A DNA stretch of 32,000 nucleotides. Source: an archaeon GW2011_AR10 (GTDB taxonomy: Archaea > Iainarchaeota > Iainarchaeia > Iainarchaeales > GW2011-AR10). Shown one piece after another: positions 8,294 through 30,479 of the stretch; the first letter of the stretch is position 1, and each line of letters begins with the position of its first letter. The notes below the pieces were generated by a model. That model did no database searches and was not told the DNA's origin. It was given only the letters and a program-made list of their open reading frames with translations. The stretch is from positions 1,110,001-1,142,000 of the forward strand of contig CP010424.1 of the NCBI GenBank assembly GCA_000830275.1. The letters run 5' to 3'. Position numbers and translations under genes: made by a program.

Positions 8294-8384
8294 TGTAGAA
8301 CGGGGTTAGGCTCACCAAGCTGATTTGGAATCCTGTATGTAGCCCCGTTCTCACCTCTAATATTTTCGGTGGGGTTTGAGGTGG
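8294..8384 (-). ncRNA. candidate structured RNA / 3' UTR element downstream of topA (two adjacent hairpins, then an oligo-T tract)
   Basis: 9-bp stem agaacgggg/ccccgttct (8297-8305 with 8343-8351). 6-bp stem cacctc/gaggtg (8352-57 with about 8379-84). On the minus strand the first stem is followed by ACA, then TTTTTATTTTTTTTATTTTTT (plus-strand A-run 8271-8293). Confidence 0.2.
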
Positions 8385-8422: not shown

Positions 8423-10531
8423 TTACTGTTTAGGCTTTTGTATAACCGCGGTTGAAATGGCTTCAGAGTCCTTCTTTTTTACAGTATTTTCAAGCTTTTT
8501 TTCCCCAGCTTTTTTCCAGTCTGCTTTTGAAGGGCATTGCGGGAAAATGCACATTTCGTAACGGTATCGTTTTCCAAAAACTTTTATAACTGGCTTTCCG
8601 CACTGCTCGCAGAGCTTGTCAGTGGAAACAATTTTTCCCTTCTGTGGAAGAGGATATGTATTCATGCAGTCAGGGTATCGGTTGCATGCAAGGAACCACT
8701 TGCCGTTCTTGCTCTTGAGCTTTCTCAGTTGGCCTTTACCGCACTTGTCGCATGTTCCAATAACTGAGTCGGCTTGCAGTGCTTTCCGCAAGTCGCTCCC
8801 AACATTATTCTTGTTCTTAAGCATGTCCTCCAGTATGATTCCCAAAAAGTCCCTTGACTCGTCCACAACCTCTTTTTTTGATTTTTTGCCTGCTGCAACC
8901 AAGTCCATTTCTTTTTCTAGTTCTGCAGTCATCTTTGGCTCGGTTACCCTCTTAGCGTACTTATCCAGTGAATCAATTACTGCAAAGGCAACCTGGTTTG
9001 GCTCCATTGCCTTTAGCCCGGCAATGTAATGCCTTGCATAAAGCTTTTGAAGTATCTCGTGCCTTGTAGCCTTTGTGCCGAGATTCAAGTCCTCCATTAG
9101 CTTGATAAGGCTTGACTGAGAGTAACGCGGCGGCGGCACAGTTTCCTTTTCAAGCAAGTTCATTTTCAGCAGCTTCACTTCATCTCCTTCAAGCATTTCC
9201 GGCAGGATTACTTCAGTGATTTTAGAGTAAGGGTAGACGTCCTTCCAGCCCGCCTTCAAAATAAGCTGCCCCCTTGCAATGAATGGCTCGCCATTAACAT
9301 GGATTTCAACACTCTGGTTTTCAGTTTCAGCGTCCTCTGAGAGAGTGGCAAGGAACCTCCTAACAATCAGCTCGTAAATTTTCCACTGCCTTTCACTCAA
9401 TTTGCTTTTAGGGGCAGCAGAAACAGGGTGAATTGGAGGATGGTCTTTTGAAGCTTTCTCGCCGGCGCTTGGCACAAGCTTGCCTCTGCTGAGAATTTCT
9501 CCAACCAAATGAGAGAACTCGTTTACTTTCACCATCTCGTCCAGTATCTGCTTCAAGTCAATTGTTGGGGGGTAATGTGTGTTATCCGTTCTTGGGTAAG
9601 ATGTATAACCCTGCTGGTAGAGGAACTCTGCGTGGTTCATGGCTTCCCCTACACTCATTCCAATTGCTGTTGCAGCACGCAAAAAGTTGGTTGTATTGAA
9701 TGGTGTTGGCCTTGCAAGAACTCGCTTCTTCCTTGAAATGCTTTTTACAATTCCGCGTTCGGATTTTTTTTCCATAATTTTTTCGGCAGTTTCCTTGTCC
9801 CACATCTGACCATTCTTGTGTTCTGTCTCAAAATTTTTGGAATCCTTTTCGAACAGCGCTGAAACAACCCAGTACTTCTTTGATTTGAACGCGTTCCGTT
9901 CCTTTTCCCTTTTTACAAGTATTGCGAGCACAGGTGTCTGCACCCTGCCAGCGCTCAAAAAGTCCTTTCCAAGCTGGCCGCTTACAAGCGACAGAAAACG
10001 CGTTAAAACAGCTCCCCAAAGGAGGTCAATTTCCCGCCGTGAATCAGCTGAATCAGCAAAGTTGAAGTCAACTTTTGCCAGTTTTGCGAAGGCATCCTCT
10101 ATGTCCTTCTGCGTTATTGCCGAAAAATACGCTCTTTTCACTGCAATTTTTGGCTTTGATTGCTTGACAATGTTCAGCGCTTCAACACCAATTGATTCTC
10201 CCTCGCGGTCAGCATCAGTTGCAATAATCACTTCATCAGCTTTTTCTCCAAGGCTTTTCAAAGCGGAGGCAATCACCTTCTCTTTGGTTAAGTACTCTAT
10301 CTCCGCTGTTGCAAGCTTCTTTAAGTCGGTTCCAAGCCAGTAGCTGTACTTTTTTGGGAAATCAACGTCAACAATGTGGCCCCGCAGCGGCACAACAACC
10401 CAGTCTTGCTCCGCTCTCTTGAAGGAGAAAATAATTGCTTTGCCGGAAGCAGTGGCAGGTACTTCCTTGCCTGCGAGAATCGAGGCAATCCTTCTCCCAG
10501 CAATGGCTTTCTCTGAAATAATCATCTTCAT
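8423..10531 (-). CDS. topA: type IA DNA topoisomerase
   Basis: TOPRIM motif IIATDADREGE, catalytic Tyr region GYTSYPRTDN, and C-terminal zinc ribbons (CDKCGKG..CNRYPDC and CEQCGKP..CIFPQC). Confidence 0.95.
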   Translation of the reverse strand: MKMIISEKAIAGRRIASILAGKEVPATASGKAIIFSFKRAEQDWVVVPLRGHIVDVDFPKKYSYWLGTDLKKLATAEIEYLTKEKVIASALKSLGEKADEVIIATDADREGESIGVEALNIVKQSKPKIAVKRAYFSAITQKDIEDAFAKLAKVDFNFADSADSRREIDLLWGAVLTRFLSLVSGQLGKDFLSAGRVQTPVLAILVKREKERNAFKSKKYWVVSALFEKDSKNFETEHKNGQMWDKETAEKIMEKKSERGIVKSISRKKRVLARPTPFNTTNFLRAATAIGMSVGEAMNHAEFLYQQGYTSYPRTDNTHYPPTIDLKQILDEMVKVNEFSHLVGEILSRGKLVPSAGEKASKDHPPIHPVSAAPKSKLSERQWKIYELIVRRFLATLSEDAETENQSVEIHVNGEPFIARGQLILKAGWKDVYPYSKITEVILPEMLEGDEVKLLKMNLLEKETVPPPRYSQSSLIKLMEDLNLGTKATRHEILQKLYARHYIAGLKAMEPNQVAFAVIDSLDKYAKRVTEPKMTAELEKEMDLVAAGKKSKKEVVDESRDFLGIILEDMLKNKNNVGSDLRKALQADSVIGTCDKCGKGQLRKLKSKNGKWFLACNRYPDCMNTYPLPQKGKIVSTDKLCEQCGKPVIKVFGKRYRYEMCIFPQCPSKADWKKAGEKKLENTVKKKDSEAISTAVIQKPKQ

Positions 10532-10550
10532 TCAATCAACTCAAGCTATG

Positions 10551-10771
10551 GCAAAATGCTTATTTATTTGAACAAAAATTGCATTTTGCAACTAGCAAAC
10601 AGCAAATTAATGCTCAAAAATCAAAGCTGTTTGCTATATATCAAATGACATTAATAATTGAACATTTATTATTCATTTGCTATAGCAGGCGACATTAATT
10701 TTTGAGCATTTATTGTCGCCTGACAGATAGCAAATGACCTTATTTTTTCAAATATTTTCGCCATTTGCTAT
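10551..10771. repeat. family-1 array A: five contiguous ~44-bp palindromic modules
   Basis: Inverted-repeat arms at 10551-59/10581-89, 10593-603/10626-36, 10637-48/10673-84, 10686-94/10714-22 and 10727-36/10762-71. AT-rich 19-25 nt loops. Junction motif TTTGC-TATA-GCAAA. Confidence 0.85.
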
Positions 10772-10794
10772 ATTTTTGGCATCAGCAAGAAAAA

Positions 10795-11361
10795 TCAGGT
10801 TTTCTGGATTTTTTTCAGCTTATCCCAGTAAAGCACCAGCGCTATAATTACTACTGCTAACGCAACCAGTGAAATGCTCAACAAAAAGCTTGCGTCTTCT
10901 CCGGCAGAAACCGGCGAAGCCAAGGGCGCGGCCCCTTTCACTGTTTCTTCAGCGATTCCAATTTCTTCAAAGGCCCTGCCATCACTGGCATTGGAAGTTA
11001 GTGCTGGTTGCTGCAATAATCCAATTGAGCCCAGCAACATCAGCAGCACTCCAGCGAACGCAACCGAGGCAACGCTTAACACAATCAGCACTGTTGTCTC
11101 TGTTTCCTTTGCTTTCACAAGCTGCTTTCCCTTTCGCGTCAAGGAATAGTACTTCCACTTCCTTCCCTCATCTATTAGTTCAACGAGCCTGTTTTCCAGC
11201 AGAACTCCTAAATGCTGCTTCGTGCTTGGGCTGCTCAATGAAAGCTTTTTTGCCAGTTCCGTCAATGTATGGTTTCTTTCATCCAGCAGCTTCAAGATTT
11301 TTACTCGGTTCTCGGAGGAAAGGGACTTGAATTCTGGGGCTGAAAGCGTTATCTCCGGCAT
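10795..11361 (-). CDS. ArsR-type wHTH regulator with C-terminal membrane anchor
   Basis: FKSLSSENRVKILKLLDERNHTLTELAKKLSLSSPSTKQHLGVLLENRLVELIDEGRKWKYYSLTRKG is an ArsR/SmtB-like wHTH. It is followed by two hydrophobic segments (VLIVLSVASVAFAGVLLMLLG and LLSISLVALAVVIIALVLYW). Confidence 0.75.
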   Translation of the reverse strand: MPEITLSAPEFKSLSSENRVKILKLLDERNHTLTELAKKLSLSSPSTKQHLGVLLENRLVELIDEGRKWKYYSLTRKGKQLVKAKETETTVLIVLSVASVAFAGVLLMLLGSIGLLQQPALTSNASDGRAFEEIGIAEETVKGAAPLASPVSAGEDASFLLSISLVALAVVIIALVLYWDKLKKIQKT

Positions 11362-11810: not shown

Positions 11811-11921
11811 GTGCCTTGCGGCACAGCCTTTTAAAAAAAGGCTGGCGAAAATGTGGCTTCGCCGAAGCCTTTTAAAAAAAGGCTGGCGAAAATGTGCCTT
11901 GCGGCAAAACCTTTTTATAGC
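11811..11921. repeat. family-2 array A: 41-bp tandem units of AGCCTTTTAAAAAAAGGCT plus a GGCGAA..TTCGCC hairpin
   Basis: Palindrome copies at 11825-11843 and 11866-11884. Hairpins gtgccttgcggcac (11811-24), ggcgaaaatgtggcttcgcc (11844-63) and gtgccttgcggca (11894-906). The array ends in AAACCTTTTTATAGC (11907-21). Confidence 0.8.
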
Positions 11922-11951: not shown

Positions 11952-12836
11952 TTGTGTGACTCTTTAATGTTTTTGCAGCAAGACCTAGTTTCAGAAATTT
12001 TTTATACATTAGGGATAATCCCAGATTATGTTACGATTCAACTAGTGCCGGGAATTCTAAACGGTCAAGCGTTTGAAATAATTGTTGGATTTCTTTTGGC
12101 TCTCATTCTGCTAATGATACTTTACAAAGGAACCCAATTAATGTATAATTTTATTAAGCGCTTTTTCTTTTTCTTGTTTATTATATTGGTGCTTTGGCTA
12201 TTTCTTAGGAATTTTGGGCATAAGATTTTCACACAAAACCCTGATCCTGTTATTGCTATCATTGGAATAATTGGTTTGCTTTTGGGTTTGGCTGCATTCA
12301 TTATCTCGGTTTTTTCATTAAAACACCATGCCATACAAATGACCACAAAAGGAACCGTTCCTGTAGAAGAAGAAATAACGGTGAAAGAGCCGAGTGCTCC
12401 AGCGATTAAGAAAACACAAATTCAGCAGCCTGAAATGCTTGCGGAGCAAGCGCTTATCCCGAAGGACTTTTACGGCCACCTTAAAACTGACAGGAGCCTG
12501 CTTGCTGTAATCAGCTATATTATAATTGCGCAGTTCGGGGTGTTTTCAGGCATAACAGTTTCCGCTCCAAACGTAGGCGTTGGCCTGGTTTTCTTTGCTG
12601 TCTTCTTCATTGCGGCATTCGCGTTCATTAAAATCTCTTACCACGACTACAGGCGCGGGGTAATGCACCTTGTTACTGCCTCCTTTTTCGGTGCAGCGCT
12701 TTCGATTGTACTGGGGCACTTCTGGGTGGAAGTCCCGCTTGAAACGCTGCTTTCCCTTAGGTACTTTGAAACCCCATCCATGGTTGCATTCGTGACCGGC
12801 ATTGCAGTTTCCCTCCTGCTTGGAAGCAAAGACTAA
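11952..12836 (+). CDS. polytopic membrane protein, function unknown
   Basis: Long ORF with at least 6 hydrophobic segments. GTG at 11952 or ATG at 11967. TATA-like CCTTTTTATAG lies 30-45 nt upstream. Confidence 0.7.
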   Translation: MCDSLMFLQQDLVSEIFYTLGIIPDYVTIQLVPGILNGQAFEIIVGFLLALILLMILYKGTQLMYNFIKRFFFFLFIILVLWLFLRNFGHKIFTQNPDPVIAIIGIIGLLLGLAAFIISVFSLKHHAIQMTTKGTVPVEEEITVKEPSAPAIKKTQIQQPEMLAEQALIPKDFYGHLKTDRSLLAVISYIIIAQFGVFSGITVSAPNVGVGLVFFAVFFIAAFAFIKISYHDYRRGVMHLVTASFFGAALSIVLGHFWVEVPLETLLSLRYFETPSMVAFVTGIAVSLLLGSKD

Positions 12837-13026
12837 AGAACTGCCAACAAAAAATTATGGAATTAACGGCGTCTTGCTGTTTTTCACGCATTTTGGGAGT
12901 TAAGGAGCAGGGAGCATTGCTCCCAGCAGAAGAATCAGTTTAGTGCCCTTAACTCTTTTGCCTAATTCAGTGAGCCTTTTCTGATACCATTACTGTTTCC
13001 CTGTTTTTAAACTTCTTTGAACACCT

Positions 13027-13048
13027 CACTGCCGGTGCAGTGCTTTTT
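13027..13048 (+). terminator. hairpin plus T5, terminator-like
   Basis: cactgc-cggt-gcagtg followed by cTTTTT, just upstream of the TATA-like AAAAAATTATATAG of gene 13105. Confidence 0.3.
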
Positions 13049-13104
13049 CCAACCGCAACTGCCAATGCAAAAAATTATATAGTTGGAGCGCCTTTTATTA
13101 ATGG

Positions 13105-13800
13105 ATGAATATTAATATTAGCATTGAAAAAAAGCCGGTCCTGGCTTTGGTTACATTAATTGCATTGGTGGCTATTTTCAGTTTGGTTATAGCCTATAAT
13201 CCAAACTGGCGCATTACTCCCGGAAACCCTGTTACTTTTGGTCACAGCCCCGACGAAATTGGAATTACCACAGTTTGCACCTTGGGGCAGGCACTAACTT
13301 TAACCGCAAGTGGTTGGAGTTGCGTTAATGTTGGGGGCGGCGGAGGCGGTCTTCAAATTGATTTTTCTGATATGGGGCAGACAATTTCCTCTGGTTCTGA
13401 TGGAACCCTGACTATTAATACCAATATTTTGCCTAATGGGGATTACCCTTATTACTCTGTTCCTCCTGGAGGCTCTAAGGAAATAATAATATTGGATTCC
13501 AGTTATGCAAACTACGCCGACACCAAGGCGGTTGTTATTGCCACCTATTTCGAGGGGGATGGTGGGGGCCCTGGCAGAGTATCATTTTATGTTGAGGCTA
13601 AAGACAGTTCTGGTTCGTGGAAAGTCATAAGCGTTGATGGTTTACACTTTAACGCAGCAGAAGGCTACCATCAGTCAGGTGCACAGTTTATTGTTCCGGC
13701 TGTCGGAAAAGGCCCTGCTGATTTAAGAATCAGGGTTCAATACGCTTCCGGTGCAACTTCAATAAAAATTATATTAAAAAGAGTCGGCGTAATTTATTAA
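13105..13800 (+). CDS. membrane-anchored extracellular protein, function unknown
   Basis: N-terminal anchor MNINISIEKKPVLALVTLIALVAIFSLVIAY, a Gly-run linker (GGGGGG), and a beta-rich C-terminal region. Confidence 0.75.
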   Translation: MNINISIEKKPVLALVTLIALVAIFSLVIAYNPNWRITPGNPVTFGHSPDEIGITTVCTLGQALTLTASGWSCVNVGGGGGGLQIDFSDMGQTISSGSDGTLTINTNILPNGDYPYYSVPPGGSKEIIILDSSYANYADTKAVVIATYFEGDGGGPGRVSFYVEAKDSSGSWKVISVDGLHFNAAEGYHQSGAQFIVPAVGKGPADLRIRVQYASGATSIKIILKRVGVIY

Positions 13801-13822
13801 TTGCGCAAAATTCTATTAATGG

Positions 13823-13852
13823 ATGAAAATTAATATTAGCGTTGAAAATTGA
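13823..13852 (+). other. 9-codon uORF or relic start (MKINISVEN*), homologous to the 5' end of gene 13105
   Basis: ttattaatggatgaatattaatattagcattgaaaa (13096-) matches ctattaatggatgaaaattaatattagcgttgaaaa (13813-). The second copy hits TGA 5 nt before ATG 13858. Confidence 0.3.
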
Positions 13853-13857
13853 TTCGA

Positions 13858-16008
13858 ATGAAAAAATTTTTTTCACAGTTGTTTGTGCTGCTTTTTCTGG
13901 TTTTTTTTATTCCGTTCGTTGCTGCACAGGACTGCACTATTAAGCCAAGCTGCCTTGCTTCAGAGTTTGCAGTTTTCTCTGTTCCAAGCACAACAAATGC
14001 TCACGCGTCAACCGCTGTTTCTGGTGCAGGCTCTTACTCCAATAAAGTCTGCTGCCCGTCCTCCGAATTTTCGGGCAACAGCTGCAGTGATCCAAATAAG
14101 GACGTTGCCCTGAACCTTTACAATGCAATGAACTCGCATGTAGAGCAGGATGGTTTGGGCAATTACTTTAATCCCGTTTGCCTTACTGCTGCAACGCAAG
14201 TAACCTGCTGGTACACAAGCGATGATTGTTCTGTTGCTGATGGTGTTGGAGTTGCAAGCATCTGGGATGGGCTCTGGGAAACAGGGGATGCAATTCAAAT
14301 CACTAACGCCCACGTTGAGCAATACAATGGCTCGGGCAATTACCCGATAAACGTTTGCTGTTCTGCTTCGGCTCCCTCAACTGATGTTTGCGGTGACGGA
14401 ACCGTTTCAGGCACAGAGGTTTGTGATCCTGCCCAAACTCCTGCAGAAATTGCGGCAATCTGCGGTGCAGGCAACGTCTGCGTTCCAGCTGGCCTTGCAA
14501 CTGAATGCACTTGCAATGCGCCTCCGATAGTGCAAATCATTGCACCTCCTGATGGGGCATCGTATGACATTGATGATGACATGCCCGTGTTGTTTGAAGG
14601 AACTGTAAGTGATATGGATGATGGCACAATATTTAACAGGTTTAATCCTCCTCCTCTTGGAAGGGTTGTGTGGCAGTCAAGCCTTGAAACAGTTGACGGC
14701 GGTTTCTTTGGTTGGGATGCCTTGTGGTTTGAGCGCCAGTTAACAAAAGTCGGAACACACACAATAACCCTTTATTACACTGATTCTGAGGCAGCGCAGG
14801 CAAGCACTACTGTTGACATCACTGTTTCGCAGTGCAGCGATGGAGCAGTTACAGGAGATGAAGAATGCGACATTGGCGGCATTAGTGGCGCGCCAGCCGT
14901 TGCATGCACGAACCCGGTTCAAACATGCAACCTTGACTGTGAATGTGTTTCAGGCCCTGCAACCCCAACATGCAATCTTTCAGTATCAGATAACACTGTC
15001 GGCCCCGGGGATTCAGTAACAGTTGACGTTTCATTGGACGATTTTTCTACAAATCCTACTACATTTGGCAGCGTTTCATGCGGTGATGCTGCCTCATATG
15101 AAGCAGACTTTTCCTGTACCGGCAACAATTGTTCCTTTTCCTGCGGCCCTTACTCAGCCAATGGAACAATAGAGAATTTGCAGTTGAATGATGGCGTAAC
15201 AACTGTAACTTGCAGTGGCGCGGTTGATATTAGTGTAGGCTCTCCAAGTGTGCCTTCGTGTTCAATTTATGCAATCCCCACAACAGTTGCTTCCGGTGGA
15301 AATGTTCTTGTAACTTTCATTTACTATGATTTCTCTGCAACCCCAAGCTTTTTAGGAATTGATTGCGGCAATGGCGCAACCCCAAGCTCCTTTAATTGCG
15401 CACCAACGTGCTATCTTACCTGCGATTCTTACTCAACCAATGGAACAATTGAGAACGCGGTTTTAAGTGATGGCGGAACCTCTGTTAACTGCGCAAACTC
15501 ATATAATATTACTGTTTCAGGCGGCCCCGGTCCAGGGCCTGCAGGAGATATTTGGGGTGTGAAGCTTTTGGCAAGCGATGATTACAATTCTTCGTCAAAC
15601 TTTAGGGTAATGGTTAGCATTACAAATTTTTCCACCGCACAAAAAGACGCTGATATTACTGTGCAGCTTGTTGACCACTTAAGCGGGCTGCCTCTTTCTC
15701 CAGCAATAACTGCAACAAAAACCATGCTTGTTGCCGGAAACAGCTCTACGCTTGATGTGGAATTCATTGAAGCAGATTTCTCTTCACCAATTCTTCCGAG
15801 AAATTACAGAGTTGTTGCTTCCGTTCCTGCCTACAATGATGGCATAACAATTGAAACTGTTATCGGAAACAATACTGATAGTAAAGTTGTTGTTGTCGGC
15901 GAGGCAAAGGCTGTTGCAATTTCCGAGCTGCCTTTGGAGCTTGTTGCAGTCATAGCTTTGGTTGTTTTAAGTATTCTTGGCGGTGCAGTTCCAGCCAAAA
16001 AAAATTGA
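13858..16008 (+). CDS. large Cys-rich surface protein (adhesin-like) with C-terminal TM anchor
   Basis: Signal peptide MKKFFSQLFVLLFLVFFIPFVAAQ. Three NAH(V)E..Y..VCC motifs. Two CxDGxxxGxExCD repeats. An Ig/PKD-like segment (..VVWQSSLETVDGGFFG..GTHTITLYYTDS..). An internal ~90-aa duplication. A CARDB-like segment. C-terminal anchor LELVAVIALVVLSILGG plus KKN. The track start 13849 is TTG. Confidence 0.85.
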   Translation: MKKFFSQLFVLLFLVFFIPFVAAQDCTIKPSCLASEFAVFSVPSTTNAHASTAVSGAGSYSNKVCCPSSEFSGNSCSDPNKDVALNLYNAMNSHVEQDGLGNYFNPVCLTAATQVTCWYTSDDCSVADGVGVASIWDGLWETGDAIQITNAHVEQYNGSGNYPINVCCSASAPSTDVCGDGTVSGTEVCDPAQTPAEIAAICGAGNVCVPAGLATECTCNAPPIVQIIAPPDGASYDIDDDMPVLFEGTVSDMDDGTIFNRFNPPPLGRVVWQSSLETVDGGFFGWDALWFERQLTKVGTHTITLYYTDSEAAQASTTVDITVSQCSDGAVTGDEECDIGGISGAPAVACTNPVQTCNLDCECVSGPATPTCNLSVSDNTVGPGDSVTVDVSLDDFSTNPTTFGSVSCGDAASYEADFSCTGNNCSFSCGPYSANGTIENLQLNDGVTTVTCSGAVDISVGSPSVPSCSIYAIPTTVASGGNVLVTFIYYDFSATPSFLGIDCGNGATPSSFNCAPTCYLTCDSYSTNGTIENAVLSDGGTSVNCANSYNITVSGGPGPGPAGDIWGVKLLASDDYNSSSNFRVMVSITNFSTAQKDADITVQLVDHLSGLPLSPAITATKTMLVAGNSSTLDVEFIEADFSSPILPRNYRVVASVPAYNDGITIETVIGNNTDSKVVVVGEAKAVAISELPLELVAVIALVVLSILGGAVPAKKN

Positions 16009-16059
16009 GCTACTGCGCGTAGAAGTGAATTTAAAGGCTCCTTGAGAATGCGCTGCCGG
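15961..16059 (+). repeat. 99-bp direct repeat, copy 1 (last 48 nt of the adhesin CDS plus 51 nt downstream)
   Basis: gttgttttaagtattcttggcggtgcagttccagccaaaaaaaattgagctactgcgcgtagaagtgaatttaaaggctccttgagaatgcgctgccgg. 92 of 99 positions match 16892-16990 with no indels. Confidence 0.9.
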
Positions 16060-16105
16060 CAAATCAAGACAAATAATTTTAAATGCATTTGTATACAATT
16101 GTAAT

Positions 16106-16594
16106 ATGTTTGTTTCAAACACTTCAACCCTGATACTGCTGGCAAAAGTTGATTTGCTGGGCCAATTCATTGAAAATTTTGGGAAAATCGAGATAACTGG
16201 AGAGGTAAGCAAAGAGTTTTCTGCAAAAGATTCTTTTGATGCAAAATTTATAAGCCGCTTAATTGAAGAGAAAAAAGTAATCGTCAAAAAAGCGGAGAGT
16301 AACATGGTTTCTGGTATTTTGATGGAGTTTTCCTTGGATAAGGGCGAGGCAACGGCGTTTGCATTATTTAATGAAAAAAGGCACAAAGCAATTTTGACGG
16401 ACGACTATGAATTAATAAAACTGTGCATGCTGAGGGAAGTACAGTTTCTTTCTGCAATGGCAATAGTTGTCAGAATGAAAGAAAAAAAGATTTTGAGCAA
16501 AGAAGAAGCCCTGCAAAAAATCAATGAATTAAACTCTTATGGGCGATATTCAAGAGAGTTGCTCGATTTTTACGTTTCGGAGGTGAAAAAGTGA
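16106..16594 (+). CDS. PIN-like nuclease, DUF3368 (COG2405) family toxin candidate
   Basis: MFVSNTSTLILLAKVDLLGQFIENFGKIEITGEV..LDKGEATAFALFNEK..AILTDDYELIKLC fits the DUF3368 pattern. TATA-like AATAATTTTAAAT lies about 25 nt upstream. Confidence 0.8.
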   Translation: MFVSNTSTLILLAKVDLLGQFIENFGKIEITGEVSKEFSAKDSFDAKFISRLIEEKKVIVKKAESNMVSGILMEFSLDKGEATAFALFNEKRHKAILTDDYELIKLCMLREVQFLSAMAIVVRMKEKKILSKEEALQKINELNSYGRYSRELLDFYVSEVKK

Positions 16595-16878
16595 GAACTA
16601 CATCAGTAAGATTGGAAGAACCGGAATCGGTCACGGCTTTTCAGAAAGTCCTAAAGGAAAAAAAATCAGAAGTGTTGCGGCAGCTAATAGAAAAAGGCCG
16701 CAAGGCAAAGTCGCTGGAATTGTTCAAGCAAAAAAAAGTATCCCTCGGCCTTGGAGCAAGACTGGCAGGTTTAACAGTAAGCGGGTATTTGGACCTATTG
16801 GAAGAAAACAGGATACCGCTAAACCTTTCCAGACGAGAAGCACAAAAAGCATTAAATACTGCGAGAAAAGTAATGTAA
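16591..16878 (+). CDS. UPF0175 (COG2886) family antitoxin candidate
   Basis: FKQKKVSLGLGARLAGLTVSGYLDLLEENRIPLNLS matches the UPF0175 core. The GTG start overlaps the upstream stop (GTGA). Confidence 0.7.
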   Translation: MRTTSVRLEEPESVTAFQKVLKEKKSEVLRQLIEKGRKAKSLELFKQKKVSLGLGARLAGLTVSGYLDLLEENRIPLNLSRREAQKALNTARKVM

Positions 16879-16891
16879 GCCATATCCAAAG

Positions 16892-16990
16892 GTTGTTTTA
16901 AGCATTCTTGACGGTGCAGTTCCAGCCAAAAAAAATTGAGCTACTGCGCGTAGAAGTGAATTTAAGGGCTCCTTGTGAGTGCGTTTCCGG
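16892..16990 (+). repeat. 99-bp direct repeat, copy 2 (orphan adhesin 3' end upstream of orc1/cdc6)
   Basis: Encodes a relic VVLSILDGAVPAKKN* in the frame of the adhesin C-terminus. 92 of 99 positions match 15961-16059. Confidence 0.9.
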
Positions 16991-16994
16991 TGCA

Positions 16995-17006
16995 AGCCTT
17001 TTAATC
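16995..17006 (+). promoter_or_regulatory. putative TATA/BRE core of orc1/cdc6 (AGCCTTTTAATC)
   Basis: AT-rich box about 29 nt upstream of ATG 17030. The same CCTTTT(T)A core lies 21-45 nt upstream of several other starts (817-830, 263-275, 11907-11921). Confidence 0.35.
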
Positions 17007-17029
17007 TTCTTCCGACAATATTTTTTTTG

Positions 17030-18160
17030 ATGAAGAAAAACATTTTTGAGCGCTCCGGCAAGGAGAAGCAGGTTTTTAAGGATGAAAAGTACCTTTACCC
17101 CGAGTTTGTGCCGGAGAGGCTTCCGCACCGTGACAGGGAAATTGATGCGCTAGTGTATGGCTTTAATCCTTTGGTTAAGGGGGGGAAACCGCACAACTTT
17201 TTTGTTGTCGGGCCAACAGGCGTTGGAAAAACTGCCTGCGTGAAGTATGTTTTGAATGAGCTGCAGGAATACAGCGACAGGGCAAAAGCCCTTTACTTGA
17301 ACTGCTTCGAGTTCAATGCAAGGCACGCAATTCTCTCCAAAATAGCGAATTTTTTGGGCGCTCCTGTTCCAAGGCGCGGGATTGCAACAGATGAAATTTA
17401 TTCGAGGTTCCTTGAGGCCTTGAAGAAGGCTGATTTTTCCCCAGTAATTGTTTTGGATGAAGTTGACCAGCTTCTTTTGAAGGCTGATGGGTCAAAGCTT
17501 TTGTATGATTTGCTGCGCGTAGTGGAGTATGAGAGGGCAAGAGTTGCCTTGGTGCTTATTTCGAATGACATTGAGTTGACAGCAAAACTTGATTCCCGCG
17601 TGAGGAGCTCCCTCACAGAGGAAAAAATTGTTTTTGAGTCCTACACTCCAGCGCAGTTGAAGGACATTCTGCGCGAGAGGGCATCCTTTGCTTTTTTGTC
17701 TGGGGCACTTGGAGAGGAAGTAATACCTGTTGCTGCAGCTCACGCCGCAAGGCTTGGGGGAGACGCAAGAATTGCAATTGAATCCTTGTTGAAGGCGGGA
17801 AGGGAAGCAGAGAAAGAGAATTCCGGCAAAGTTGAAGTGAAGCACTTGAAAAAATCTTTTGAGTCAGTTGATGCGGTTTCTTTGCTGAAAGGAATTAGGC
17901 ACTTGAATGAAAGCGAGGCACTGCTGCTTAAGCTTATTGCTGAAAAGCCCGGCATTTTTTCCGGGGAACTGTTCAAGGCCTTTGGCGGGAAAACTGAACC
18001 GCTTTCAGAGAGGAGGCTCCGCGATCTGTTGAATGGCTTGGAGAAAAAAAACTTTGTTTTCTCAGAGCAAGTCAGCCTAGGCAACAAGGGCAAAACAAGA
18101 AGTTTTTCGTGCAGGCTTCCAAGAGAGCCACTAATGCGGGAGCTTAACCGAAACCAATAA
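17030..18160 (+). CDS. cdc6: Orc1/Cdc6 replication initiator
   Basis: ERLPHRDREIDAL.., Walker A GPTGVGKT, Walker B VIVLDEVD, C-terminal winged helix. ATG 17030 is preferred over the track GTG 16979, which lies inside the 99-bp repeat. Confidence 0.95.
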   Translation: MKKNIFERSGKEKQVFKDEKYLYPEFVPERLPHRDREIDALVYGFNPLVKGGKPHNFFVVGPTGVGKTACVKYVLNELQEYSDRAKALYLNCFEFNARHAILSKIANFLGAPVPRRGIATDEIYSRFLEALKKADFSPVIVLDEVDQLLLKADGSKLLYDLLRVVEYERARVALVLISNDIELTAKLDSRVRSSLTEEKIVFESYTPAQLKDILRERASFAFLSGALGEEVIPVAAAHAARLGGDARIAIESLLKAGREAEKENSGKVEVKHLKKSFESVDAVSLLKGIRHLNESEALLLKLIAEKPGIFSGELFKAFGGKTEPLSERRLRDLLNGLEKKNFVFSEQVSLGNKGKTRSFSCRLPREPLMRELNRNQ

Positions 18161-27886: not shown

Positions 27887-27986
27887 AAACCTTTTAAAAA
27901 AGGTTTATCAAAAATGGGCTCCGCCTAAACCTTTTAAAAAAAGGTTTGCGAAAAAGGCTTCGCCTTTACTTCACCTATGCGGAGCC
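27887..27986. repeat. family-2 array B: 40-bp tandem units of AAACCTTTTAAAAAA(A)GGTTT plus a GCGAA..TTCGC hairpin
   Basis: Palindromes at 27887-27906 and 27927-27947. Hairpin gcgaaaaaggcttcgc at 27948-63. An outer inverted repeat ggctccgc/gcggagcc (27917-24/27979-86) encloses the second unit. Confidence 0.75.
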
Positions 27987-28041: not shown

Positions 28042-28430
28042 CTATTTTATCGGAATTACGATTTTCGAGATCTGTGTAGATAAATTGATATTCAGCTTGT
28101 TTTCGTGGAATTCCATTATCAAGACACAAAGATTGTGGCAGACTGCTTTGGATAGAATTTCGTTGACATTGGCCGTAGTGTTTTTTGTCATAAGGCTGCC
28201 GCTAAATGCTTGTTTTACCATGTTGAAAGTTGATTCGACGTTACTGCGCTTGTGATAATGTTCGCCCCATTCTTTGGGGCTGTTCTTAAAGTGCCAATAC
28301 ATCTTGTTCCAAATATGGCCGACATTTCGTCTCGATTTTGTGTTTGACTTGTAAGGTATGTAAGGTGTTCCGCTGAGTTCAGCAACCGCTTTAAGATTAT
28401 TTTTTCCAAGAAAAGAATTAATTAAAACTG
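28042..28430 (-). pseudogene. 5'-truncated DDE transposase (IS4/IS5 type), C-terminal ~130 codons only
   Basis: One continuous frame without a start codon: ..LGKNNLKAVAELSGTPYIPYKSNTKSRRNVGHIWNKMYWHFKNSPKEWGEHYHKRSNVESTFNMVKQAFSG... It contains the Y-x2-R-x3-E-x6-K signature. The frame is open back to the Mrr stop codon. Confidence 0.75.
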
Positions 28431-28536: not shown

Positions 28537-29424
28537 TTAAACCCCAAACCCTTCAAAGAAATCGTAATCTATTTTAGGTATTGATAATGGAATACTTTTT
28601 ATTCCAAGGCCATATTTTATCATCAATGCAACTAACTGTTTGCCATCAATTGCCTTAATTTTTCCAGATTTTTTAGCAGTTTCCAATGCATCTTTTGAAA
28701 AAGTTGAAGTAGTGATAAATATGCCATACTCTCCTCGTTGGGTTTGTATTGCACCTAATAAATCTCTTATTTCTTTTGATGGAACGCTGCTGTTTAGCCA
28801 TCTTTTTGCTTGAAAATGAATTTTGTATAACCCGAGCTGGTCTATTGAACATTCTCCATCTATTCCTCCATCCCCTGAGCGACCAGTGATTTTGATACTG
28901 CCGTATCCCATATTTAATAAAAGCACCCCGATAAGATTTTCAAATAAGTTAGGCTCAAGTTTTAGAAGAATTGCTAAAATTTCTTCTGAAATAGTTTCTA
29001 CAATTTCCTTCCGTGAAATCTCGATTTTTTCAAGAGGGTTCAACTCCGTTGTTTTCATCTGATGTGATTGAGAAGTATCTGGTCCAAGCGAAGAACTGCT
29101 TGAAACTTCCATTCTAGAGTAACGAGGAGTCCATGAGGCCCATTCTGCATCAAGTCGTGCTTTTCCTTTATCTTTAATTTTCCAAATACCGCGTGTTGAG
29201 CCGTCAAGTTCTTCTTTCGCAATTAATTTTTGCCTAGCCCATTGAACCCAATTTCTCCATTTATTAATCCCTGAATCCATTGTTGCCGCCAAATCTTCAG
29301 TTGTTATCTCTTTAAAGTAAGCCGTAACTAACTCAACTGCCTTTAGCATAGACAGTTCTCCACCGCCATCAGAAATGACTTTTAACAACGGAAGCTCAAC
29401 ATTAGTTTGAATAGGCAGAGCCAT
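28537..29424 (-). CDS. mrr: Mrr-family restriction endonuclease (Mrr_N winged helix plus PD-(D/E)xK catalytic domain)
   Basis: N-terminus: LPLLKVISDGGGELSMLKAVELVTAYF..WRNWVQWARQKLIAKEEL. Catalytic region: ITGRSGDGGIDGECSIDQLGLYKIHFQAKRW..GIFITTSTFSKDA. Confidence 0.9.
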   Translation of the reverse strand: MALPIQTNVELPLLKVISDGGGELSMLKAVELVTAYFKEITTEDLAATMDSGINKWRNWVQWARQKLIAKEELDGSTRGIWKIKDKGKARLDAEWASWTPRYSRMEVSSSSSLGPDTSQSHQMKTTELNPLEKIEISRKEIVETISEEILAILLKLEPNLFENLIGVLLLNMGYGSIKITGRSGDGGIDGECSIDQLGLYKIHFQAKRWLNSSVPSKEIRDLLGAIQTQRGEYGIFITTSTFSKDALETAKKSGKIKAIDGKQLVALMIKYGLGIKSIPLSIPKIDYDFFEGFGV

Positions 29425-29580
29425 ACATTTAGAAGAATAAGAACAATCTTTAAACCTCAGTTTTAGAGGTTAAAATAAGAATAAACATTAATCTACAGAA
29501 GCCCCATTCACAGTTTAGGTCACAATTTATCTACAAGTCTACCCTTACCTGCGCCTTTAAATTCAAGGAATACTTATATC

Positions 29581-29765
29581 TATAGCAAAACGCTTATGTA
29601 TTTGAACAAATAGCGAATGACTTTACTAATGGTAAAAAACAAGTCATTCGCTAGTCGCAAAAGACATTAAGAAATTACCAAAACCAATGTCTTTTGCTAA
29701 AAAAATTGCATTTTGCAACCAGCAAACAGAATTAAATGTTCAAGAATAAAAGTTGTTTGCTATAC
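29581..29765. repeat. family-1 array B: four palindromic modules, homologous to array A
   Basis: 29701-29765 is about 88 percent identical to 10575-10640. Modules: tagcgaatgact/agtcattcgcta (29611-22/29642-53), gcaaaagacatt/aatgtcttttgc (29657-68/29686-97), agcaaaca/tgtttgct (29721-28/29754-61). A split outer pair gcaaaacgc (29585-93) / gcattttgc (29708-16). Confidence 0.85.
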
Positions 29766-29795: not shown

Positions 29796-30479
29796 ATGCA
29801 TATACAATTCTTGAGGCATTCTTTTTTCAAGGTGGCATTTGACAAAACAACAGTGTTGTTCGATCCGTTCATTTACACTTCTTCCACTGATGAAAACTTT
29901 AAAGTACTGACGCCCTGCCCTTTAACTGAAAAAGATCTCGGCAAAGTTGACTTAATACTTGTTTCACAGGAACACTTTGACCATTTTGACAAAAAAGCAA
30001 TTGAATCAATAGCAAAGCAGCATAATTCTGTCGTGGTATCGCATGAGTCCGTATTGAATGAGCTTTCGCTGCCGCCGAGCCAGATAAAGCCGGTTAAAAT
30101 AGGTGATTTGTTTTCATGCAGGGGAGTAAATGTTGAAGTCAAGTCAGCCCACCAGCCGAACTCCTTTTATCCTGTGAGCTTTTTGTTGGAACAGGGCGGG
30201 AAAAAAGTTTTTTTTGCAGGCGACACGCACTTAACTGACCAGTTTAGCGAAGTGCGAGCAGACGTTGCATTGCTTCCAATTGGCGGGAACCTCACAATGG
30301 ATGTAACCGATGCAGTGAAGGCAGCGAAAACAATTAAGCCAGCTTACGCTATTCCAATGCATTACAACACTTTCCCGATAATTCAGGCTGATCCGCTTGA
30401 GTTCAGCCAGAGAATTGAGAAAAGCATACTGAAAACAAAGCCAGTAATACTTAAGCCGGGAGAAACGTTCGAATTTTAA
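29796..30479 (+). CDS. metallo-beta-lactamase fold hydrolase (UPF0173-like)
   Basis: LILVSQEHFDHFD (HxHxDH-type motif variant), ..FFAGDTHL.., ..AIPMHYNTF.. Size and pattern match UPF0173 metal-dependent hydrolases. Confidence 0.85.
   Translation: MHIQFLRHSFFKVAFDKTTVLFDPFIYTSSTDENFKVLTPCPLTEKDLGKVDLILVSQEHFDHFDKKAIESIAKQHNSVVVSHESVLNELSLPPSQIKPVKIGDLFSCRGVNVEVKSAHQPNSFYPVSFLLEQGGKKVFFAGDTHLTDQFSEVRADVALLPIGGNLTMDVTDAVKAAKTIKPAYAIPMHYNTFPIIQADPLEFSQRIEKSILKTKPVILKPGETFEF

Follow-up and report, generated by a model that had tools for sequence, protein, structure and literature searches.

Palindrome-framed, promoter-like modules dispersed among DPANN archaea

Hairpin modules in two homologous arrays

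A 32-kb stretch of archaeal DNA (the whole of it is called the window here) contains at 29581-29765 a run of short palindromes, in which some units lie inside the loop of another, and a similar run in front of its topoisomerase I gene (topA). The question raised by this locus is what such units are and why they recur. We analyzed both regions, array A (10547-10773, with its hairpins at 10549-10773) and array B (29581-29765), and found that they are built from a family of palindrome-framed, promoter-like modules common to several DPANN lineages. Within the reach of our literature searches the family is previously undescribed, and the same searches returned no archaeal description of small, dispersed palindromes that combine co-varying stems with a conserved loop and a TATA end. 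The window belongs to a DPANN archaeon of Crystal Geyser groundwater that is Diapherotrites-like. The genomes of DPANN archaea are tiny and, to our knowledge, the control of their transcription and its rewiring are almost wholly uncharted. The coordinates of all features are given in Table 1.

In array A five hairpin modules follow one another in the orientations -,+,-,-,+, at a regular spacing of 44-45 bp and with palindromic junctions; neighbouring units are 72-79 % identical. The modules aligned readily once they were oriented by the motif TGYTCAA. Read with this motif on the top strand, each module presents a variable 5' end, GCAAA, 3-6 variable arm bases, an A/T-rich loop of ~20 nt with TGYTCAA in its centre, the complement of the variable bases, TTTGC and TATA. 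Exactly 12 nt separate TGYTCAA from TTTGC, and they comprise an A/T-rich stretch and the complement of the variable bases. The loops are A/T-rich and 17-25 nt long, and the G+C content of the modules is 22-38 %. The ends TATAGCAAA...TTTGCTATA are inverted relative to each other, i.e., the modules possess terminal inverted repeats, and the unit is directional, with 6.4 bits of information in the downstream TATA and 2.1 bits at the upstream end. The loop motif reads TGTTCAA on the minus strand in A1, TGCTCAA on the plus strand in A2 and TTTTCAA in A5. Module A4 has arms of wholly different sequence which are yet complementary, and its loop type is unchanged.

The pattern GCAAA-N4/5-AWTWWW-TGYTCAA-N12-TTTGMHA had 4 matches in the window and none in shuffles (0 expected). 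When the whole 32 kb was scanned with the covariance model R1, with filters off, every match with E<0.3 fell within the two arrays. Among 15 modules, the 13-bp helix was 80.5 % paired, as against 33-42 % when the partner columns were slid by 1-3 positions, and double-sided changes were counted in 27 cells, compared with 8.1 +/- 2.2 in shuffles. Columns 16/46 and 17/45 showed all four Watson-Crick pair types and no mispairs. The mispairs of the helix were GT (4), AC+CA (4), AA (12) and TT (6), with no G·T excess on either strand. The module structure is under selection, and at the DNA level: the arms co-vary without an excess of G·U, which speaks for a palindrome kept as DNA and against an RNA helix. 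Folding as single-strand DNA gave z = -6.2 for array A and z = -7.0 for array B relative to shuffles. No Rfam family reached its gathering score in the window and four related loci, and relaxed searches of them gave only generic hairpin families far below threshold.

An earlier note on this DNA had proposed, from a manual alignment, that the two arrays are homologous, that the modules are discrete units of about 44 bp, and that array B contains the homologue of the A1+A2 pair with two further hairpin units inside the loop of its first module. These proposals were borne out. BLASTN of array A against the whole window aligned 29701-29764 with 10574-10638, i.e., with A2 and the right arm of A1 (65 nt, 87.7 % identity, E=2e-16), and 29580-29610 with 10546-10576 (31 nt, 90.3 %, E=2e-6). 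The Smith-Waterman score between the arrays was 89, against 20.9 +/- 3.1 and a maximum of 40 in 500 dinucleotide shuffles. The similarity is not limited to low-complexity A/T runs, since it includes the arms GCATTTTGCAAC and AGCAAACAG...TGTTTGCTATA.

The 89-nt insertion in array B was resolved by local alignment and BLAST. This block (29611-29699) splits module B1 and consists of two perfect hairpins, Bi1 and Bi2. The arms of Bi1 (29611-29623 and 29641-29653) are complementary at 13/13 positions and frame a 17-nt loop without TGYTCAA; those of Bi2 (29657-29668 and 29686-29697) are complementary at 12/12 positions, also around 17 nt. Both share the arms of the modules, with a compensated G:C in TAGCGAA/TTCGCTA, but their loop is different and shorter. 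On one side of the block, the covariance model matched the left half of B1 at 29577-29634 on the minus strand (30.6 bits), and on the other the right half has 19 bases in a row identical to 10574-10592. Deleting 29611-29699 restores an A1-like module, identical at 44/53 positions and with four extra A at the junction. B1 also presents an uncompensated arm change (GCAAAACGC vs GCATTTTGC), which fits a relaxed constraint on the module once it was split. As a separate observation, contigs of three independent assemblies (L079, L006 and L005) end inside array B, at 29610, 29650 and 29688, which is at the edge of the inserted hairpins or within them; such breaks would fit either a drop-out of coverage at perfect palindromes or structural heterogeneity in the population.

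Dispersal, nested insertion and inversion of the modules

True members of the family, recognized by the pattern together with the covariance model, occurred in at least five other DPANN contig groups. In 596 Gb of species-representative genomes the refined pattern had seven matches: three, all true hairpin modules, were in archaeal metagenome-assembled genomes (MAGs), and the other four were bacterial, lacked the hairpin and correspond to the expected noise. The source genome itself was not among the matches of the genome and metagenome pattern scans. The loci found include two modules upstream of a UDP-glucose-dehydrogenase-like gene (L080), a Woesearchaeota MAG with one module detected by the pattern and a second by the covariance model (L081), and a four-module array upstream of SMC (L082) which resembles A4-A5 (85 % identical over 59 nt). 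The metagenome scan additionally gave L088, L091, L099, L101, L093 and L097. A co-resident relative (L056) carries related modules with other loops beside an AsnC gene. In viral contigs, TAGCAAA..TTGARCA..TTTGCTA matched only a conserved phage coding region and other sequences without a hairpin, and the sole match of the refined pattern was a gut-phage sequence.

Five contigs (L081, L088, L091, L099 and L101) share an element of ~95 nt composed of two modules, whose copies are 92-100 % identical. The copies lie in unrelated flanks, which have nothing in common beyond the TATA ends, and their TATA...TATA borders are sharp. In L091 the element, otherwise 98-100 % identical, has its two modules separated by a 45-nt block that bears a hairpin. 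No clear target-site duplication was found at the five copies or at the insertion in B1, which is in an A-run with four extra A. Another pair of modules, upstream of a tyrosyl-tRNA synthetase (TyrRS) gene in L093 and L097, is identical to A2 and A1 at 42/44 and 42/49 positions. Since the nearest relative of this TyrRS shares only 67 % identity with it and the cluster is absent from any large contig, the bearer of the pair is most likely a different archaeon. Judged from these alignments, the modules have been dispersed to unrelated loci and across species. An apparent cross-domain match in L093, where bacterial IF-2 and NusA lie beside the modules, was rejected as a chimeric contig; L097 and L107 continue differently there. 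Relative to L093 4483-4605, 123 nt are missing at position 694 of L097, comprising the gene-proximal module and the first ~18 codons of TyrRS; the loss begins exactly where the upstream module ends, and its cause is either a genuine deletion variant or an assembly error at the repeats.

One clear loop inversion, between species, is apparent from the comparison of the window with L093 and L107. In both contigs the arms, the junction with the next module and the left flank are collinear with the minus strand of the window, and the A2-like module has its 22-nt loop in reverse-complement form, identical at 21/22 positions. Within the species, ~20 contigs had arrays identical to those of the window except for single-nucleotide polymorphisms at 10706, 10717 and 29626, and they are therefore uninformative on whether modules were gained or lost. 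A recent origin of pairs by inverted duplication, as in REPINs, was not supported: partner modules are only ~65-70 % alike, barely above shuffles.

Position at gene starts and possible functions

On balance we lean towards reading the modules as portable, outward-firing promoter cassettes, an activity suggested by geometry only. The TTTGCCATA end of A1 faces topA, 15 nt from its first ATG and 21 nt from its second. The distance from the TATA end to the ATG is likewise 21 nt for TyrRS, 23 nt for an MNT-like gene and 24 nt for both a 78-aa gene and MgtC. In array B, the TTTGCTATA end of B2 is 31 nt before the ATG (29796) of a metallo-beta-lactamase-fold hydrolase (MBL) gene, a distance that had earlier been given as 35 nt. 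In ordinary host genes the A/T box is centred 25-30 nt ahead of the ATG, so that their mRNAs should have no leader or a very short one; this fits the archaeal TATA spacing of roughly 28 nt (PMC8553660). The module distances of 21-24 nt for five genes and 31 nt for MBL are in line with these host boxes and with an archaeal TATA box centred about 26-28 nt upstream of the transcription start, which is the ATG in leaderless mRNAs. No other A/T box occurs between the module and the ATG of these genes, and where the intergenic region is divergent the promoter must lie within it. All arrays with known flanks (10/10) face at least one gene 5' end, and none is between convergent genes.

The TTTGC-TATA end or, in some copies, an A/T box just after TGYTCAA would serve as the TATA region, the leaderless or short-leader mRNA would start ~25 nt past it, and the TGYTCAA loop motif may be an upstream factor site. 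Two outward modules would constitute a bidirectional cassette, in which A1 and B2 are directed to topA and the MBL gene, respectively, and their partners A2 and B1 to the right and to the left. The arms would be held complementary as DNA, most simply by hairpin or template-switch correction, and hairpin formation could explain the copying of units to new sites, the nested insertion of Bi1 and Bi2 in B1 and the loop flips. Our best guess is that the arms matter for spread, nesting and flipping rather than for initiation. The earlier note had held, as array A is followed by no plus-strand gene, that a shared promoter function would not by itself explain the homology of the arrays. This objection was not sustained: the shared unit is an outward pair, in which A1 faces topA on the minus strand and B2 faces MBL, so that a promoter role is compatible with both loci. 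Bacterial sigma-70 promoters of the extended -10 type, which the TGnTATAAT-like ends recall, were set aside, as the hosts are archaea.

A number of observations weigh against promoter cassettes. The two candidate TATA positions conflict between loci: in L091, where just 5 nt separate the module end from the ATG, the loop box is the only one to fit, and the corresponding distances in L082 and L080 are 48 and 69 nt. Modules point toward the gene in 12/12 cases, a count confounded by the almost invariably divergent arrangement of pairs, through which the terminal modules A5, L082 M3 and L101 M2 are also directed outward, to the 3' ends of genes. In array A a single gene would be served by five modules. 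None of the other ~35 promoters of the window contains TGYTCAA or TTTGCTATA, which are found nowhere else in it, so that the modules would represent a special promoter class and not the general one. Complementary arms are not in themselves required by a promoter, and Bi1 and Bi2 have the arms without the loop motif. Finally, the ~20 same-species contigs presented no flip and no presence/absence variant.

Several of these traits recall bacterial repetitive extragenic palindromes (REP) and their composite forms, bacterial interspersed mosaic elements (BIME) and REPINs. The modules could accordingly be selfish or structural palindromes copied by a Y1/HUH-type single-strand DNA enzyme, their gene-start position and TATA-like ends being incidental, e.g., a target preference; we regard this as unlikely. 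Like the bacterial elements, they are short intergenic palindromes with a conserved stem base and an inner stem of variable, co-varying sequence, a trait of tagged REP families (PMC3733652). They form clusters of mixed orientation (the alternation in array A and the mostly divergent build of pairs agree with REP/BIME), pairs are the dispersal unit and whole units are gained or lost; the dispersed units have sharp borders and unrelated flanks, units are inserted into one another, near-identical copies occur across species, and Bi1 and Bi2 have no loop motif. However, REPs are palindromes of 20-40 nt with a loop of 2-5 nt and a G+C-rich stem (PMC3733652), whereas the modules, which are archaeal, have A/T-rich stems and long (17-24 nt), conserved, A/T-rich TGYTCAA loops. 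They end in TTTGC-TATA without a GTAG or CGTC tag, and they keep a spacing of 21-24 nt to five start codons with none in convergent regions, while REPs favour gene 3' ends. A high copy number per genome and an associated Y1 (RAYT) transposase gene characterize the bacterial family; no Y1 transposase was present among the window genes scanned, no transposase is beside the arrays, the sole one in the window being a DDE remnant, and no clear target-site duplication accompanies the modules.

The regular spacing of 44-45 bp and the palindromic junctions would also suit operators, with dimers of the adjacent ArsR-type or of an Lrp/AsnC protein bound every 44-45 bp at TTTGC-TATA-GCAAA junctions or at TGYTCAA. 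The ArsR-type gene is directly next to array A, ArsR/SmtB operators typically have TGAACA-like half sites, and an AsnC gene neighbours the related modules in L056. Operators are nonetheless improbable, because a protein site would keep its sequence and the inner arms change freely while staying complementary, to the point that A4 retains the hairpin with entirely different arms; no regulator gene is near the other module loci, and 44.6 bp is not an integral number of helical turns. An RNA role, either as stem-loops in 5' leaders or between cistrons (stability, processing or translation signals) or as small RNAs, would account for the strong predicted folding, the co-varying arms and the fixed position relative to start codons, and array A, between same-strand genes, could be co-transcribed. 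We consider it an improbable explanation as well, given the lack of a G·U excess on either strand, the occurrence of both orientations within one array and the absence of an Rfam family even at relaxed thresholds; moreover, the divergent regions of MBL, TyrRS and MgtC have no A/T box upstream of the module to start a nearby transcript. Origin repeats of the origin recognition box (ORB) type, bound by Orc1/Cdc6, come to mind as well, as the window is origin-proximal: it contains cdc6/orc1, and topA is within 1-3 kb of cdc6 in relatives (L056 and L058). They are very unlikely. Archaeal origins carry ORB repeats around an unwinding element beside orc1/cdc6, whereas arrays A and B are 6 kb and 11 kb from the gene, with other genes between, and the same modules occur upstream of TyrRS, SMC, MgtC, UDP-glucose dehydrogenase and others on unrelated contigs, i.e., at many non-origin loci; the motif conserved next to cdc6 is a different inverted repeat, GAGTTAAGG..CCTTAACTC (see below). 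A CRISPR array, in which unique spacers separate direct repeats that are nearly identical, usually with cas genes, was rejected on the basis of the differences between successive units (72-79 % identity), the complementarity within one unit and the lack of cas genes among the neighbours, and integron attC sites were considered and rejected too.

Promoter cassettes that move as small repeats have partial parallels. The inverted module ends and the sharp borders in five contigs agree with the terminal inverted repeats of miniature inverted-repeat transposable elements. Correia elements of Neisseria and other "mobile promoters" are likewise dispersed units with inverted ends, found upstream of unrelated genes, to which they seem to bring a promoter. 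Compared with them in general terms, the modules are smaller (44 bp, or ~95 bp per pair), their promoter logic would be archaeal (TATA and transcription factor B recognition element, BRE) and no clear target-site duplication was found. In the archaeal halovirus HF2, intergenic repeats of 29-58 bp were shown to be promoters by reporter assays (PMC8707807); they are also repeated intergenic units with an A/T box, but they are viral, and co-varying hairpin arms, nesting or inversion were not reported for them (PMC8707807).

A more speculative form of the promoter reading, which we hold to be rather unlikely, is that each module is a minimal invertible promoter, whose ~20-nt loop sets the direction and whose arms permit template-switch flips and unit copying. 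With equal reserve, the arrays might be evolvable and possibly phase-variable bidirectional switches that spread among co-resident DPANN archaea. In minute inversions of chloroplast hairpins, as in A2 versus the first module of L093, short inverted repeats enclose a loop of ~20 nt that occurs both ways round in related sequences (PMC12371153); those are neutral markers, whereas the segment flipped in the module carries a directional motif beside a TATA end. In switches of the fimS type, inverted repeats also frame a directional promoter-like segment and both orientations are observed. Unlike fimS, the module segment is ~10x shorter, no recombinase gene was seen, and a single orientation occurred in the ~20 same-species contigs, with inversion only between species.

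Should the modules prove to be promoters, different DPANN lineages would share a compact and portable promoter unit, with a turnover through copying, nesting and inversion, and the modules would offer a testable link between DNA hairpin formation, supercoiling and transcription, as one array fronts topoisomerase I. Otherwise, they would still be the archaeal equivalent of bacterial REP elements, though differently built.

Genomic setting and other repeats

DNA identical to the window was present in many Crystal Geyser groundwater assemblies and in MAG GCA_013332025.1, and the population may be the Ca. Forterrea one of PMC5905446. The closest relatives of its topoisomerase I are at most 69 % identical and are labelled Diapherotrites or "archaeon". 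Besides this enzyme, the genes of the window include those for an NFACT protein, Cdc48, Orc1/Cdc6, an archaeal phenylalanyl-tRNA synthetase (PheRS) and an Mrr nuclease. Array A has the 3' end of the ArsR-type gene on one side and the topA start on the other, both genes being on the minus strand, and array B is flanked by the divergent Mrr and MBL genes. A separate TATA-like box, TTTAAAGA, precedes the ATG of the Mrr gene by ~25 nt.

Table 1 Modules of arrays A and B and genes referred to in the text (window coordinates)
Feature	Position	Strand	Remarks
Topoisomerase I gene (topA)	8423..10531	-	Pfam Topoisom_bac, Toprim, Zn_ribbon_Top1; directly downstream of A1
Module A1	10547..10592	-	Arms TGGCAAAATGC / GCATTTTGCAA; covariance model 61.7 bits, E=1e-12
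Module A2 (B2 homologue)	10593..10638	+	Perfect 11-bp arms TAGCAAACAGC / GCTGTTTGCTA; covariance model 71.8 bits
Module A3	10637..10684	-	Arms TATATCAAATGA / TCATTTGCTATA; covariance model 55.8 bits
Module A4	10681..10726	-	Arms CAGGCGACA / TGTCGCCTG; partial covariance model match, 29.7 bits
Module A5	10725..10773	+	Arms ATAGCAAATGAC / GCCATTTGCTAT; covariance model 55.1 bits on the plus strand, 34 bits on the minus
ArsR-type winged-helix gene	10795..11361	-	Pfam HTH_5, HTH_20; 3' end abuts array A
cdc6/orc1 gene	16979-18160
Mrr-type restriction endonuclease gene	28537..29424	-	Divergent from MBL gene
B1 left half (A1 homologue)	29581..29610	-	Arm TATAGCAAAACGC and loop up to TTGAACAAA
Inserted hairpin Bi1	29611..29653		Arms TAGCGAATGACTT / AAGTCATTCGCTA
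Inserted hairpin Bi2	29655..29699		Arms GCAAAAGACATT / AATGTCTTTTGC; weak covariance model match, 20.6 bits
B1 right half	29700..29719	-	AAAAAATT and arm GCATTTTGCAAC
Module B2 (A2 homologue)	29718..29765	+	TGTTCAA on the plus strand; covariance model 59.1 bits
Metallo-beta-lactamase-fold hydrolase (MBL) gene	29796..30479	+	Pfam Lactamase_B_3, Lactamase_B_2; downstream of B2

The remnant of a DDE (IS4/IS5-type) transposase gene at 28042-28302 is located in a non-coding stretch of 720 bp beside Mrr, and it showed no ends similar to the module ends; at the same site of MAG GCA_013332025.1 an open reading frame (ORF) of 150 aa was called (L070 3931-4383). Between the topA-ArsR group and cdc6, five ORFs without a Pfam match occupy 11952-16878, a block that is probably an insertion near the origin. 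Just upstream of cdc6, the exact direct repeat CTACTGCGCGTAGAAGTGAATTTAA (16010-16034 and 16941-16965) brackets two small ORFs without a family match (16106-16878); it could correspond to the ends of an inserted element or to an origin-associated repeat. The inverted repeat GAGTTAAGG...CCTTAACTC was kept in three species (window 12897-12955, L056 8546-8581 and L058 1892-1941), with the L058 copy in an intergenic region next to cdc6, and it is a candidate origin-recognition (ORB-like) element.

Other hairpins were found close to topA. In two species, a hairpin GAACGGGGTT...(A)CCCCGTTC, with a GGGGGGATCCAATCC motif nearby, lies between topA and the next gene, of 179 aa (window 8298-8350, L056 12641-12689); it had no Rfam match and is possibly a small RNA that annotation has missed. 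An 11-bp inverted repeat, AGTATTTCATT / AAAGAAATACT (L054 9947-9985), also precedes topA in a relative that lacks TGYTCAA modules; it frames an A/T-rich loop of 17 nt and ends 15 nt before the topA ATG. Directly upstream of the second Woesearchaeota module, four short AAAAT-N-ATTTT hairpins occur in a run (L081 6130-6250) and represent another type of hairpin repeat. Another dispersed repeat family is present in the window: two copies of the palindrome CCTTTTAAAAAAAGG lie at 11827-11885 and two at 27890-27945, 1.1-1.7 kb from arrays A and B, each copy being followed by a short G+C-rich hairpin (ggctggcgaaaatgtg..cttcgcc type), and a similar hairpin, AAAAAGGTTT..AAACCTTTTT, was found at L003 18178-18219.

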